From Octopus sinensis (lineage: Eukaryota): a stretch of 64,000 nt of DNA. The stretch covers positions 23,746,001-23,810,000 of the forward strand of contig NC_043018.1 in the NCBI RefSeq assembly GCF_006345805.1, read 5' to 3'. Positions 16,501 through 61,390 of the stretch are shown piece after piece (position 1 is the stretch's first letter; each line of letters opens with the position of its first letter). The translations under genes and the position numbers were made by a program. A model generated the notes under the pieces. The model saw only the letters and a list, made by a program, of their open reading frames with translations. It was not told the origin of the DNA and made no database searches.

Positions 16501-17849
16501 CCTAAGAAAACCTTCACAATATCTTCCTAAAATAATTCTAAATATTTTACAGTTAAATGTTAGCTATCTTCATTCTCTAATTAATCACTGTTCATAACAC
16601 ACACACACACAATTAATTCTTTATTTTGAGACATGTTTCTAGAAATTCTTCTTCATTTTGACTATTTTTATTTTTCTAGATATTTCTTCTTTGAACACAC
16701 CAAAAGAAAATAAAAATTGCAGAATGGAATTCAATCCAGCATTTACACCACAAATATTAGTATTTCGTGTTTTACAATATATTATCATTATTGTTTTATA
16801 ATACATTTCTTCCAAATATTTACACAAATATTAGAATATATCCTTAATTTTTAGATTTTACAGGGAGCATAAGAAAGACGACTATCATTTCCTATTAAAA
16901 AAAAAGAAAGAAAAAGGAGCGGTGTTTGTGTGTGTGTGCACTATCTGCAAAAGTGCCATGACTACAAAACATTTTATAACAAACAAGACATAGAATAAAA
17001 ATATAAGTGAAATACAAAAGAATTGTTTTTCAATGCAAGTCATGATCTGGTTTGGGGATCTTCTCTCTCTCCCTAATTTATTACCCACTTTAAAGCAGCT
17101 TTTTTGTTTAACTGATTTTCTTCGTTTATTTAAATTTTTTTTTTTTTTTTTTTGGTGAGGGGGAGCAGCAATTTTGTTATTACAATTTCTACATTTTCAG
17201 AAACAGTGATAAGAAAAAAAAAGGGGGGGGGGGAAAGTTCCAGTTATATGCAATAGCAGCAGACTTTAGATACAGACTTTGGAAATAAAGATTTGAAGGA
17301 AAATATCAAACAGAACATCAAATTTGAGGATTACAGGAGGTGAGGAGGGGGGGGGGTTAAAAATAAAAATAAAAAGAACTTGACTTTAGATGGGTTTTTA
17401 TAAAGTCATTTCAACAAGTTTTTGCAGAAATGGACAACTACATCCTCCAAGACACCAAACTCAGTTCTAAACACTGGTGGAATGTCGGAGGCAGATATAC
17501 ATACATTATATATAAAATCACAAACATATATTTGTACACATACATATCATAGGGAGAGAAGAGAGAGCAGGTATAAACTGGTTGTTTTGTTATTTATTAT
17601 ATCTAATTATCACAGATTAACATCAATAGAGTTACTATAATTGTAGGAACACAAGAGCTGGACAATTTTAGAGCAACAAAAAAAATAATTTTTTTTTTAA
17701 AAAAAAAAGAGAGAGAGAAAATATGAAACTTTCAAATTTCCATCACCATCTGAAGAGGATGAGTAGGTCGGAAACCTTGGGGCGTTTGTTTCAGCAAAAA
17801 CATTATGCAGGATTTTCAAGAGTTCAACAAAAACAGAGTTTCCAGGGTT

Positions 17850-32893: not shown

Positions 32894-33126
32894 TTACCGA
32901 TCATGGCAATAACAGAGTTCATGGTTACACCGAGAGTGGGGGATATATGTAGTATTGTTTACTCTACCTTTGGAATTACGAGGGAACTCGCACTCCTCAC
33001 ACTTCTCCAAAGCCGGGTGGTTGAGAAATGTGCAGGCAGCACAGTTCCAGTGTTCTCCTTCAAAGTCATTCATTGGTAGTGACGGAGGTGTTTCAGGGTG
33101 GCGTGGTGGTAGAGGAGGGGGGGTCA
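32894..33126 (-). CDS. TAB2: TAB2/TAB3-like NZF (RanBP2-type zinc finger) exon, to the read-through stop
   Basis: Acceptor ttttccattgcag| at 33126 (phase 1). Encodes (L)[76 protein letters not shown]. [24 protein letters not shown] (33049-32978) is the diagnostic TAB2/3 NZF. The 3' boundary could instead be an internal donor after 32968. Confidence 0.93.
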
Positions 33127-33911: not shown

Positions 33912-34001
33912 ATTCGCGAGCAAATAAGGATCCGCTCTGACCAGTGTTCATATTCTTATAAAAGTTCTGTTGTTCTGAAGGATCAAGTACTCCGATGGGT
34001 G
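33912..34001 (-). CDS. TAB2: TAB2/TAB3-like exon (90 nt)
   Basis: Acceptor tttcttttaacag|, donor AAT|gtaagt; phase 1 to phase 1. Encodes (T)PIGVLDPSEQQNFYKNMNTGQSGSLFARE(L); NFYxN is a TAB2/3 motif. Contained in ORF 33850..34035. Confidence 0.92.
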
Positions 34002-36423: not shown

Positions 36424-36631
36424 TCTTTTACTCTTTTACTTGTTTCAGTCATTTGACTGCGGCCATGCTGGATCACCACCTTTAGTCGAGCAAATCGACC
36501 CCGGGACTTATTCTTTGTAAGCCCAGTACTTATTCTATCGGTCTCTTTTGACGAACCGCTAAGTGACGGGGACGTAAACACACCAGCATCGGTTGTCAAG
36601 CAATGCTAGGGGACAAACACAGACACACAAC

Positions 36632-36677
<46 letters not shown>

Positions 36678-36849
36678 CATATATACGACAGGCTTCTTTC
36701 AGTTTCCGTCTACCAAATCCACTCACAAGGCATTGGTCGGCCCGGGGCTATAGCAGAAGACACTTGCCCAAGATGCCACGCAGTGGGACTGAACCCGGAA
36801 CCATGTGGTTGGTTAGCAAGCTACTTACCACACAGCCACTCCTGCGCCT
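36424..36849 (-). mobile_element. tRNA-derived SINE family A (internal TA/TG microsatellite, GTAAAAGA tail), full length
   Basis: Head aggcgcaggagtggctgtgtggtaag..gggttcagtccc has A/B-box-like motifs. Many near-identical copies in the window. Confidence 0.9.
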
Positions 36850-37062
36850 ATGTCGATGTGTATAAATCATTGAAACATGGCTTACAAGTGCTTTGAGTGA
36901 AACGTATCTTCTGGTTTTTATTTAATTTGAGTTGCATAGAAACCCCCTTATTACTCTAGCCCAGTGGTTCTCAACCAGGATCCATATGGCCCTTAGTGGG
37001 GGGAGCCCATATAAAATTCTGATGTCAAAAAATTTATTTGCAATGAATTAGTAATATCTCTA

Positions 37063-37502
37063 TAGTTGTATACTGTCAACTTAATGTGACAGTCCCATGA
37101 AAGGAATAATACTACTGCTATTTAGCCCTAGGAAGCGGCAACGCTTCCTGTTGGCTTTGACGCAGTTCCTGTGTCCTTATGTTTGCAACGCGGAGATAAG
37201 CATCTCCACCCAGCTAAGCCTGCATCCAGAGACTAGTTTCTGAGTCTTGCTCATCATCAGTCTGGAGTAGCATGGCCTGCTAGTTGGAGATGCCTGTCTA
37301 GCCTTTGAAAATATATAAGATTTCTAGTGAAATACATTCACTGATTACGAAAACAGAAATAATCCTAGGGTAAATAGCAGTAGTATGATTCTCTTCATGG
37401 GACTGTCACATTAAGTTGACAGTATACAACTACTTTATTGTACCGTTACTGCATAAATCTCTCTGAGATATTTAGAAATGTATTATTTCTATTTTCATAA
37501 TC
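37063..37502. mobile_element. Penelope-like-element-derived fold-back insertion carrying the hammerhead
   Basis: About 70-bp inverted repeat (37063-37133 vs 37363-37432) and a second inverted pair (37341-37363 vs 37482-37504). Flanked by a near-duplicated 13-mer agtaatatctcta (37050-37062) / agtaatatttcta (37503-37515). Inverted terminal segments plus a minimal hammerhead are typical of PLEs; no coding sequence is present. Confidence 0.6.
37200..37293 (-). ncRNA. Minimal type I hammerhead ribozyme (Penelope-like-element type)
   Basis: Minus strand 37266->37225 reads UCCAGA-CUGAUGA-UGAG caaga CUCA-GAAA-CUAG-UC^-UCUGGA: 6-bp stem I, intact CUGANGA and GAAA core, 4-bp stem II, palindromic minimal stem III (ACUAGU) and a GUC cleavage triplet. 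Stem I extends through bulges to the pair 37200-37214 / 37279-37293 (13/15 complementary). Confidence 0.8.
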
Positions 37503-37700
37503 AGTAATATTTCTACAATACACAAAGTATTTTAAAACTTTCTGTTTATACAAGTCCTAATATTTAATTGTCAAAATATACGATTTTTTAAACATCGAAT
37601 GGTTAGGAGGGTCCATCTGAGTAAAATGGGAATCAAAAGGGTACACAGAAATGGTTGAGAAACACTACTGTAGCCATTGAGAACCCTATAAAACTATGTG

Positions 37701-37767: not shown

Positions 37768-38672
37768 GAATAAGAATAGGCTGGGCAAAGTTCAGAGAGC
37801 TCCTATCTCTGCTGGTAACAAAGAGCCTCTCTCTCAGAGTGAAAGGCAGATTGTATGATATGTGTGAACAGCCATGCTACATGGCAGTGAAATATAGGCT
37901 GTGGCTCAAGGACATGCATAGGCTTGTAAGAAATGAAGCTTATATGCTCAGCTCTGCTGGATGTGTAATGTCAGTGTGCATGCATGACAGTGTAAGTGCC
38001 CTGAGAGACGACTGCGCTGGTATGGTCATGTGATGTGTATGGACGAGGAACAGCTGTGTGAAGAAGTGTTGCACTTTAATGGTGGAAGGAACCCAAGACA
38101 TGGGACGAGGTGTTGAAGCATTATCTTTGAATGTTGGGCCTATTATAGGCAATAATAAATGGCCGAGACCTTTGGCAATATGTCGGGCTTGAGAAGACCC
38201 ATCAAGTCAAGTGAGATCATAGTCATGACCACTGCCAGTGACGCATAACTGGCACGTAAAAAGCACCCTTTAAATGCCAGACGATATGCTGTGCCTGAGA
38301 AGACTTGTCAAGCCAAGTGAAATCATAGTCGCGGCCAATGCCAGTGGCATGTAAAAAGCACCGTTTGAGCATTGGACCTCATGGAGGCAATGACAAGTGA
38401 CCAAGACCTTTGGCGATATACTGTGCTTGTGCAGACCTGTCATTGATGTGACCATGGTCATGGCCGATGCCGGTGTCACATCAATGGCACCTGTGCCATG
38501 GCAGGTTAAAGGCATCCACTACACTCTTGGAGTGGTTGGCATTAGGAGGGGCTTCCAGCCATAGAAACCTTGCCAAATCATATTGGAACCTGGTGCAGCT
38601 CCCTGGCTTACCAGTTTACAGTCAAAATATCCAACCCATGCCAGCTTGGAAAGTAGACGTTAAACAATGATG
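37766..38672 (+). mobile_element. 3' fragment of the same RTE-clade LINE including the 3'UTR and (GAT)n tail
   Basis: RIRIGWAKFRELLSLLVTKSLSLRVKGRLY, homologous to 60775-60870; ends ..gacgttaaacaatgatga. Confidence 0.85.
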
Positions 38673-39009: not shown

Positions 39010-39085
39010 TTTGTCCATTGTTGTGAGCGTCAAGTTCCTTCAGCATACCTCCTATTTCAGCTTGTATTTTATAAAAGTCAGCAGG
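39010..39085 (-). CDS. TAB2: TAB2/TAB3-like exon (76 nt), end of the TAK1-binding coiled coil
   Basis: Acceptor ttttgtatttaccag|, donor CAAA|gtaggt; phase 0 to phase 1. Encodes PADFYKIQAEIGGMLKELDAHNNGQ(T), resembling TAB2 'LQIDIDCLTKEIDL'. Confidence 0.88.
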
Positions 39086-59869: not shown

Positions 59870-61390
59870 ATAGGAATAATTACAGAGGTATCAAATTGTT
59901 GGATCAGGTAATGAAAGTCAGAGAGAGAGTCATAGCCCAACTTAGGGCAACAGTTAGTTTAGATGAGTTTGGGTTTGTGTCATGTAAAAGCACCACTGAT
60001 GCTATATTTCTGGTAACACAGCTGTAGGAGAAATTCCTAGCCAAAGATAAACCTTTCTACTTGGCTTTTGTTGACACGGAGAAAGCCTTTAATAGGGTCG
60101 CCAAGCCCTTATCTGGTGGTCAATGCAGAAACTAGGGATGAGTGGTTAGTAACAGCTGTACAAGCCAAGTACAGGGATGCTGTCAGTAAGGTGAGGGCTG
60201 GCAACAAGTATAGTGAAACATTCCAGGTAGGAGTAGGGGTCTATCAAGGATCAGTCCTCAGCCCCCTCTTATTCATCATAGTCCTCCAAGCAATAACAAT
60301 GGAATTCAAGACAGGATGCTCCTGGGAGCTCCTCTATGCTGATGACCTTGTTCTAATAGCTATGTTACTACCAGAACTAGAGGATAAGTTTCAGGTGTGG
60401 AAGCAAGGTCCAGAATGGAAGGGCCTTAGAATCAATCTAGCAAAATCCAAAGTCTTAGTAAGTAGGAAGGCAGACAAATTACAAATCCCTTCAGAAAGAT
60501 GGCCCTACTCAATATGTAGGAAAGGCATAGGTAGAAACTCTATAAGATGTATCCGGTGTAGGCTACAGACACGTAAGAGGTGCAGCAATATCAAAGGACG
60601 GTTAACTGGGATGATAGTTTTTGTGTGCAGCAGATGCACAGGAGTAATAAACACAGTAAATGTGCAGAAAACTGATTCCATCACATGCCAGGGGGAAAAC
60701 TTGAAGTAGTTGATAGCTTCCAGTACTTAGATGACCAAGTCAGTAGTGGAAGTAGAGACTGAGAGCGTAGCTGTTAGAATACGAATAGCCAGGGCAAAGT
60801 TCAGAAAGATCCTACCTCTGTTAGTAACAAAGGGCCTTTCACTCAGAGTGAAAGGTAGACTGTATGTGTGCAAACAGCCATGCTACACAGCAGTGAAACA
60901 TGGGCTGTGACTGCTCAGAACATACGTAGGCTTGAAAGAAACGAAACTAGTATGCTCTTTTGGATGTGTAATGTCAGTGTGCATACACAACAGAGTGCAA
61001 GTGCCCTGAGAGAAAAGTTGGACATAAGAAGCATCAGGTGTGGTATGCAAGAGAGACAATTGTGCTGGGATCGTCATGTGTTTCGTATGGATGAGGACAG
61101 CTGTGTGAAGAAGTTCCACACCCTAACAGTGGGGGGGAACTTGTAAGTGGTAGACCCAGGAAGACCTGGGATGAGGTGGTGAAGCACGACCTTCGAACAT
61201 TGGGCCTCACAGAGGCAATAACAAGCAACCGAGACCTTTGGAGATATGCTGTACTTGAGAAGACCCAGCAAGCCAAGTGAAATTGTAACTGTGGCTTGTG
61301 CCAGTGTCACATAACCGGTCCATTTAAGAGTTTCCTTCAACTGTTGGGCAACGTGCTGTGCATGAGAAGACGTGTTGAGTCAAGTGAAAT
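59870..61390 (+). mobile_element. RTE-clade LINE, 5'-truncated and decayed
   Basis: Broken frames give YRGIKLLDQVMK, FGFV..KSTTDAIFLV, AFVDTEKAF. ORF 60068..60709 has QGSVLSPLLF, YADDLVL and a Cys-rich segment; ORF 60868..61146 has SETW..RRLERNE. Confidence 0.92.

Follow-up and report, generated by a model that had tools for sequence, protein, structure and literature searches.

Metazoan non-LTR retrozymes are described (PMC7229834) as small non-coding units of 350-390 bp in mussel, 330 and 350 bp in axolotl and 225-245 bp in coral. They carry one type I hammerhead, have a GC content below 50% and target duplications longer than 4 bp, and are predicted to form highly paired circles. Penelope-like elements (PLEs) are reported to insert with an inverted truncated copy and a tail on one end (PMC8557442, PMC3846280), and their reverse transcriptase uses two internal start sites in vitro (PMC11167929). 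The minimal hammerhead of PLEs is given a helix II of 7-8 bp, a helix I of 4-5 bp and one unpaired base before the G10.1-C11.1 pair (PMC4209133). For newt satellite 2, a hammerhead repeat, an snRNA-type Pol II promoter has been reported (Coats 1994, cited in PMC2220036). Among LINEs, some Tx1 elements have other transposons or snRNA genes as their targets (PMC4494074, PMC8869645), including Tx1L in Tx1D, Tx1-Mar in Mariner-N4 and Keno in U2 (PMC4494074), and HAL1 elements are known ORF1-only LINE derivatives (PMC5753468).

The window considered here is a stretch of 64 kb of octopus DNA with a hammerhead in an intron of a TAB2-like gene (Table 1). No paper was found on hammerheads in octopus genomes. 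The feature belongs to a known class and is ordinary within it. With a probability of roughly 0.8, the 351-nt repeat of which it is part is a non-LTR retrozyme that a Penelope-like reverse transcriptase mobilises in trans, and the copy in the window is a weakly cleaving passenger. The family is of greater interest than this copy, since it has a promoter box and LINEs aimed at it; the proposed role in TAB2 regulation is to be dropped.

Table 1. Positions of the features in the window and, for the LINEs, in other loci (L) of the genome
Feature	Position	Strand	Remarks
Type I hammerhead, whole, with palindromic ACUAGU stem III and GUC	37225-37266	minus	
Stem I strands UCCAGA and UCUGGA	37266-37261 and 37230-37225	minus	sequence
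CUGAUGA core	37260-37254	minus	sequence
Stem II UGAG/CUCA around CAAGA loop	37253-37241	minus	U-A and 3 bp
GAAA core, then CUAG, UC	37240-37237 (GAAA)	minus	sequence
Long bulged stem I extension (predicted)	37197-37300	minus	folding
PSE-like box	37325-37348	minus	score 13.3; background 99th percentile 6.4
Sense arm, u218-u351 then u1-u168, to fixed end A	37063-37363	minus	94% to family majority
Inverted arm, u98-u241, to fixed end B (with tail)	37364-37505	plus	
Target-site duplication, left	37046-37062		17 bp, 2 mismatches against the right one
Target-site duplication, right	37499-37515		
Exon upstream of the intron	39010-39085	minus	TAB2-like, its frame continuing into the NZF exon
Exon downstream of the intron	33912-34001	minus	AG/GT ends, frame
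Last coding exon, NZF zinc finger	32894-33126	minus	best matches TAB2/TAB3
ORF1-only (zinc-knuckle, HAL1-like) elements, often tandem	L177:6214-7908; L175:6385-7883; L186-L275		
Complete young L1/Tx1-like LINE, ~5.4 kb	L312:1110 through L314 to L288:745; L335-L354		

The hammerhead motif

Every hammerhead element that the earlier note had read on the minus strand is present at its position in the sequence, with the cut predicted between 37231 and 37230, and the observation is confirmed. The type I core C3 U4 G5 A6 N7 G8 A9 / G12 A13 A14 A15.1 / U16.1 H17 lies between three helices; the G10.1-C11.1 pair at the base of stem II is absent, U-A standing in its place. Folding also predicts the bulged extension of stem I beyond the core that had been proposed, and the 5' arm of this extension starts near the predicted transcription start site. 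The predicted folding energy of the 106-nt hammerhead region is -49 kcal/mol (z -4.8); none of 200 shuffles did as well. Taken by itself, the core motif stays within chance in the window, with three matches at two sites against a shuffled mean of 1.46 and 21 of 100 shuffles reaching three. A second core-like motif (17750-17778, plus strand) has no evident stems and is within chance.

No Rfam family reaches its gathering score anywhere in the window, and the covariance-model check put forward in the earlier note was negative, the Rfam hammerhead models giving no match up to E 10 around 37225-37266. The hammerhead is taken as real because of its stems and its family. Genome-wide, the exact core is matched 766 times, against once for a reversed control pattern. 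Stem covariation among copies, another of the proposed checks, is present: across 15 family representatives, two-sided changes are seen at 11 of 12 pairs, among them the switch from C3-G8 to U3-A8, with a score of 0.76 against 0.34 when shuffled, an upper and inflated view in that the rows were chosen among copies with pairing stems and kin share changes.

Helix I has 6 bp and an internal loop, and helix II has 3-4 bp, with an extra base on both sides. These are the helix sizes of the canonical metazoan retrozyme hammerhead, which has a 6-bp helix I with internal loop and a short helix II. The PLE minimal hammerhead is ruled out for this motif by its helix II, which should measure 7-8 bp. The type I assignment, the palindromic dimer-type stem III and the link to PLEs claimed earlier are borne out, and the minimal architecture is not. 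Stem III consists of 1 bp and a palindromic tetraloop, as in HHR_Amex1, and the mismatch at the base of stem II recalls HHR_Amex2 (both in PMC7229834).

The U-A pair at the base of stem II had been listed as a weakness of this copy. The pair is there, but it is no private defect: the position is unpaired in 9 of the 15 representatives and G-C in 2, and A-U, U.U, C.A, U-A or G-C occur across the lineage. The odd first pair is thus a lineage trait. As to CpG decay at U10.1, C is replaced at this position in 12 of 30 young copies, above the CpG average of 18%, and the older subfamily has U.

Among 29 young copies picked by similarity, shared variants occupy 0 of 348 cells in 12 core positions, compared with 3.3% elsewhere, and singletons amount to 0.6% in the core and 1.6% elsewhere (p 0.18). 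Because shared core variants are lacking and singletons are not significantly depleted, selection is placed at the level of the source elements, which kept the ribozyme core. Single copies give no clear sign of selection after insertion, their decay being indistinguishable from neutral. The lineage keeps its catalytic core, yet accepts a mismatch in the stem II base pair that is otherwise nearly always fixed.

The search turned up no fewer than seven related families. In one aligned pair of families homology lies 3' of the cut (score 86, shuffled maximum 33.5). A hand count in family 2, covering the 100 matches listed of 275, gave 48 U3-A8, 45 C3-G8, 7 U3.G8 and 0 C3.A8; this split of core haplotypes may be a single lineage event. 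A sister retrozyme family (L036:1835-2170, L151-L170) has 3091 candidates that are 93-97% alike. Its core haplotypes are linked, C3-G8 with C.A and U3-A8 with G-C, and many of its copies have U4C.

The retrozyme family and its insertions

The genome-wide copy search suggested in the earlier note finds the repeat in hundreds of copies. A first-look DNA search of the octopus genome itself gave 2649 candidates, 40 of them scored, and unit homology was present at 26 of the first 30 core-pattern loci. The unit, taken from a natural tandem, is 351 nt long with 41% GC, a longest ORF of 52 aa and one hammerhead; folded as a circle it has z -10.2. It is numbered from the first base 3' of the cut (u1). 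The mapping covered 111 loci, 30 taken from the similarity search and 81 from the pattern search (58 of these hand-chosen among the matches listed), after three overlapping loci were dropped; six loci had no match.

The retrozyme call fits in unit size (150-450 bp), non-coding content, GC below 50%, single hammerhead and duplications longer than 4 bp, and the highly paired predicted circle is a further likeness to the metazoan units of PMC7229834. In contrast to these, the octopus family consists mostly of scattered monomers and head-to-head inversions, not of arrays, is variable at the base of stem II, has a PSE-like box and is known here from its sequence alone. Two or more consecutive hammerhead units, the mark of an 'active' retrozyme, occur as direct tandem cores at 1 of 111 loci; the window copy, like most others, is a monomer. 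Sister families show tandems of 360 and 470 bp.

The window insertion is composed of a sense and an inverted arm, the last 7 bases of the latter lying within the target duplication. Duplications at other unique sites are about 11-17 bp, and no LTR is present. The 3' ends of arms cluster at two sites, ~u170 and ~u229. Two arms stand head to head at 65 of 111 loci, and the inverted arm is missing at the other 46. Where both ends of a two-armed locus could be classified (45 loci, leaving out 20 with an unclassifiable end), one end lay at each fixed site in 41, against an expected 0.5 (p 5e-9); the pattern-picked loci alone gave 27 of 30. AT-rich or microsatellite targets were seen at 48 of 162 ends. 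Because the inverted arm and the single-end tail recur in 41 of 45 classifiable two-armed copies, the insertions are regarded as PLE-mobilised.

The likeness to PLE pseudo-LTRs (pLTRs; PMC4209133, PMC11167929, PMC8557442, PMC3846280) comprises the inverted 5'-truncated arm, the tail on a single end, two fixed reverse-transcription start sites 3' of the hammerhead, the frequent AT-rich or microsatellite targets and, in sister families, the U3-A8 core variant of PLE hammerheads. Unlike pLTRs, the octopus unit has no RT/GIY-YIG ORF, its tail is ~58 nt rather than 30-40, and its helices are of canonical and not minimal size.

Cleavage leaves no genomic footprint at the 5' ends of arms: 9 of 188 arms begin in u341-u10, compared with ~5.4 per 10-nt bin, which is no enrichment at the cut site. 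Arm lengths of one unit, a possible sign of a circular template, were not evident by eye, the counts at 320-340 and 340-360 nt being similar. A two-armed insertion at L114:1143-1212 includes ~70 nt resembling the 3' end of the ORF1-only element described below, which suggests that a chimeric RNA was reverse-transcribed by the PLE enzyme.

Two other readings of the repeat were weighed against the retrozyme. The unit could be the solo pLTR of an autonomous PLE, all copies being 5'-truncated PLE insertions with no self-standing retrozyme. The PLE-type anatomy would follow, animal retrozymes reportedly derive from pLTRs (bioRxiv 10.64898/2026.07.22.740005) and PLE copies are numerous in the genome (16374 candidates). 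However, arms longer than one unit run into the next unit and not into an ORF (2.35 units at L020), the sole common upstream sequence at the examined free 5' ends (u280-325) is an ORF1-only LINE derivative, and the unit is unlike the ends of the one PLE family examined; this reading is improbable. Far less credit still, in fact almost none, is due to a MITE covering the 370 bp of 37063-37432, with terminal inverted repeats of 65 bp and a captured hammerhead. It would account for the 65 nt on either side of the ribozyme in which the two arms pair, being 94% complementary. It is refuted by the variable junctions: the inverted arm runs on to 37505 in the window, is absent from 46 of 111 loci and differs in length and content between copies; moreover, the unit also occurs in direct tandem and the target duplication lies outside 37432.

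As to the partner of the retrozyme, an autonomous PLE with ends matching the unit was not found in the one abundant RT-GIY-YIG family examined, nor an ORF with RT and GIY-YIG continuous with the unit at the mapped loci. A GIY-YIG fragment beside one retrozyme locus (L016) belongs to a large PLE family, which was rejected as the autonomous partner because its ends do not match the unit. Six matches to a longer core pattern had neither unit homology nor an upstream PLE ORF. The very abundant young PLE family with RT and GIY-YIG (L171:2104-4515, L121-L150), to which the candidates counted above refer, was found to have no hammerhead near its 3' end.

The promoter box

A box at -56 to -58 is common to nine U1 loci (15 were fetched, one duplicate was dropped and five had no box at that place). 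The matrix built from these nine has its maximum at -57 to -61 in 20 of 20 U2 loci, and because the offset is the same in both gene types, the U1 box is taken by position as the PSE. Applied to the unit, the U1 matrix has one clear peak at u236 (9.8, the next best being -3.8), and in the window it peaks at 37345. A matrix from U2 only finds the same position but with low scores, 0.7 in the unit and 2.9 in the window. An snRNA-type start is accordingly predicted near u293, or ~37288 in the window, ~58 nt before the cut, and the box would act as an snRNA-type promoter. Newt satellite 2, a hammerhead repeat of similar size, offers a precedent, whereas in octopus the promoter is deduced from motif position alone. 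Such a promoter within the unit would be a concrete answer to the question of how animal retrozymes get transcribed.

LINEs inserted in retrozyme relatives

Several retrozyme copies begin at u294-305 behind a common AATAAA-tailed sequence. This is an insert of 1.5-1.8 kb with a zinc-knuckle ORF1 only, and it lies directly in front of hammerheads from many retrozyme families. The rest of the retrozyme was found on its far side in 6 of 11 long fetches, with duplications of 10-22 bp. A hammerhead core on the same strand lies 22-45 nt downstream of 55 of 85 distinct ORF1-only ends, where chance would give 1.8%; the 55 include two query loci and one likely chance match, and the queries came from retrozyme-linked copies, so that other subfamilies may differ. 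(The 85 ends derive from 90 loci, three having no end and two being duplicates.) In the pattern-picked subset the hammerhead-adjacent ends are 17 of 30. The remaining 30 ends, judged by eye, are about half followed by a duplication and the next copy or by a damaged retrozyme, and about ten lie elsewhere. The inserts are 94-96% alike in retrozyme hosts that are only 45-72% alike, and one truncated insert (L217) keeps its duplication, from which it follows that the insertions are independent.

Hammerheads also follow LINEs with a zf-RVT domain. Among 20 ends hand-picked from the 150 listed, 6 precede hammerheads (two recognised by eye), 1 precedes U1 at +1, 3 apparently precede tandem copies and 10 other sequence. 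The complete LINE of Table 1 has APE, RT and zf-RVT in ORF2, and its ORF1 is 30% identical to the ORF1-only protein (E 6e-34). Its host is a young retrozyme of 360 bp whose core has U3-A8, and the duplication of the LINE begins 57 nt past the PSE-like box. The 20 further copies examined are all at the same site, 19 of them ahead of a hammerhead (in one case with a single base missing from GAAA) and the twentieth ahead of another copy. The type of junction tracks the host haplotype, and these copies may be two or three insertions amplified together with the host. A close relative, with 93% identity over the end of ORF2, is followed by a full U1 snRNA sequence starting at +1 (L284:739). Its 5' junction was looked for at that locus and not found, and the U1 sequence could be a retrocopy.

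The order APE-RT-zf-RVT in ORF2, the CCHC ORF1 and the presence of one target in more than 20% of flanks agree with a target-specific element of Tx1 type; the label Tx1-like is a provisional one, taken from domains and behaviour. Further features in common with the Tx1 clade (PMC4494074) are the AATAAA tail, duplications of 10-22 bp, tandem re-insertion and a mobile element as target, and ORF1-only derivatives are shared with HAL1 (PMC5753468). In contrast to Tx1-clade LINEs, the octopus target is a hammerhead retrozyme, and one ORF1-only family enters hosts 45-72% alike at a near-fixed distance from the promoter box instead of one sequence. In the papers searched no report was found of a LINE targeting a hammerhead or retrozyme, while Repbase and Kojima and Fujiwara 2004 may hold these families. 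The pattern is one of LINEs aimed at ribozyme retroelements, which they enter at the predicted start site although the hosts differ in sequence.

In two further LINE lineages the 3' end lies 70-90 nt before other hammerheads, one at L285, L286 and L293 (a 470-bp tandem) and the other at L287, L289 and L313. At L277 and L283, LINE 3' ends are followed by a related short repeated sequence that looks structured and has no Rfam match; it is possibly another small RNA or ribozyme repeat.

Target recognition and proposed life cycle

Promoter-factor-guided integration is known from Ty3 and TRE5-A. A three-tier system of this kind can be proposed for the octopus elements, as a tentative account that is rather less probable than its negation. 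In it, Penelope-like enzymes would move promoter-bearing retrozymes; machinery bound to the PSE, and not the target sequence, would guide the LINEs and their ORF1-only derivatives to the start site; and the LINEs would take the promoter, obtain a ribozyme-cut 3' end ~60 nt downstream and ride along in retrozyme copying. If true, it would be an animal counterpart of promoter-factor-guided integration, directly testable and bearing on how LINEs choose safe sites.

Guidance by the promoter is favoured by the offset of the best PSE box, which is -55 to -57 in 5 or 6 (depending on the matrix) of 13 ORF1-only retrozyme targets and -57 for the complete LINE, and by the related LINE at U1 +1. Against it stand the shifted offsets of the family-2 group (-64 to -67) and of two copies that carry local indels (-49 and -73), the low box scores of family 6 and the single nature of the U1 case. 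In addition, the matrix finds no box near -57 at two other LINE targets (L293 and L313), nor at 6 off-target ORF1-only insertions, and none of 20 copies of the complete LINE (L288 family) is at U1 or U2 genes. Family-specific endonucleases that co-evolve with each retrozyme are at least as likely.

The life cycle of the retrozyme might then be as follows. Transcription would start near u293 from the box at u236, 58 nt upstream of the cut. In tandem or paired transcripts, by analogy with the literature, two hammerheads would share the palindromic stem III and cleave, and cleavage may free a highly paired 351-nt circle. Insertion anatomy suggests that a GIY-YIG endonuclease makes staggered nicks, giving the duplications of ~11-17 bp at unique sites, that each nick primes reverse transcription at one of the two fixed sites (~u170 or ~u229), and that both cDNAs are then joined in head-to-head orientation. 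With the promoter upstream of the start, read-through or a circular template is required to regenerate it; the window sense arm, which holds the box and crosses the cut site, fits such a template. The L1/Tx1-like LINEs and their ORF1-only derivatives insert at or just after the predicted start, a pattern seen in relatives and not in the window copy, and likely borrow the retrozyme promoter.

The host gene

The three exons of Table 1 have AG/GT ends, one joined frame and consistent intron phases, and TAB2/TAB3 NZF structures are the top match of the last one (E 4e-13). The name TAB2-like, given after the NZF finger, is to be read with this in mind. From the exon anatomy, the minus strand would be transcribed and spliced; with the gene strand read in this way, the position of the hammerhead in sense to the intron, as first described, holds.

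Retrozymes in introns are ordinary, and 42-44% of copies are reported to be intronic in Xenopus (bioRxiv 10.64898/2026.07.22.740005). The earlier note had envisaged that self-cleavage could uncouple the coiled coil of TAB2 from its NZF finger, a proposal that is unsupported. For it to hold, the intronic copy would have to cleave the TAB2-like pre-mRNA, alone or in trans, and the host would use the cut to remove the NZF exon. The copy is indeed in sense to the putative transcript and has an intact core, folding in context predicts both stem I and stem II, and in newt long helix I extensions permit some monomer cleavage (PMC6155905). It is, however, one of hundreds of copies, ~5% away from the family majority (94% identical) like its sisters, from which it differs neither in age nor in decay. 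No second hammerhead in cis was found by insertion mapping or by a core-motif search of the 64-kb window. The monomer core is predicted to mispair (P 0.7-0.9), the fold with a free core being 1.8 kcal/mol worse than the best fold, and in Xenopus one of nine dimers cleaved in vitro (bioRxiv 10.64898/2026.07.22.740005). Host use of the cut is thus very unlikely. The lone window copy is predicted to cleave only weakly, and an axolotl hammerhead with a similar 1-bp stem III reached 6% monomer cleavage in 1 h (PMC7229834).

The window copy is likely a passenger, inert towards TAB2. Amniote intronic hammerheads and CPEB3 occupy conserved host loci. What the octopus hammerhead has in common with them (PMC6765202) is an intronic self-cleaving motif in sense to the gene; unlike such host-kept ribozymes, it is a repeat copy whose decay is indistinguishable from neutral.

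Common SINE-like repeats are present in the same intron (36500-36850 and 38120-38650), and a LINE RT fragment lies further upstream (60041-60706). Cephalopods are known for heavy RNA editing. In the pre-mRNA, 37063-37127 and 37368-37432 would pair as a duplex of 65 bp around the ribozyme, a possible substrate for A-to-I editing.
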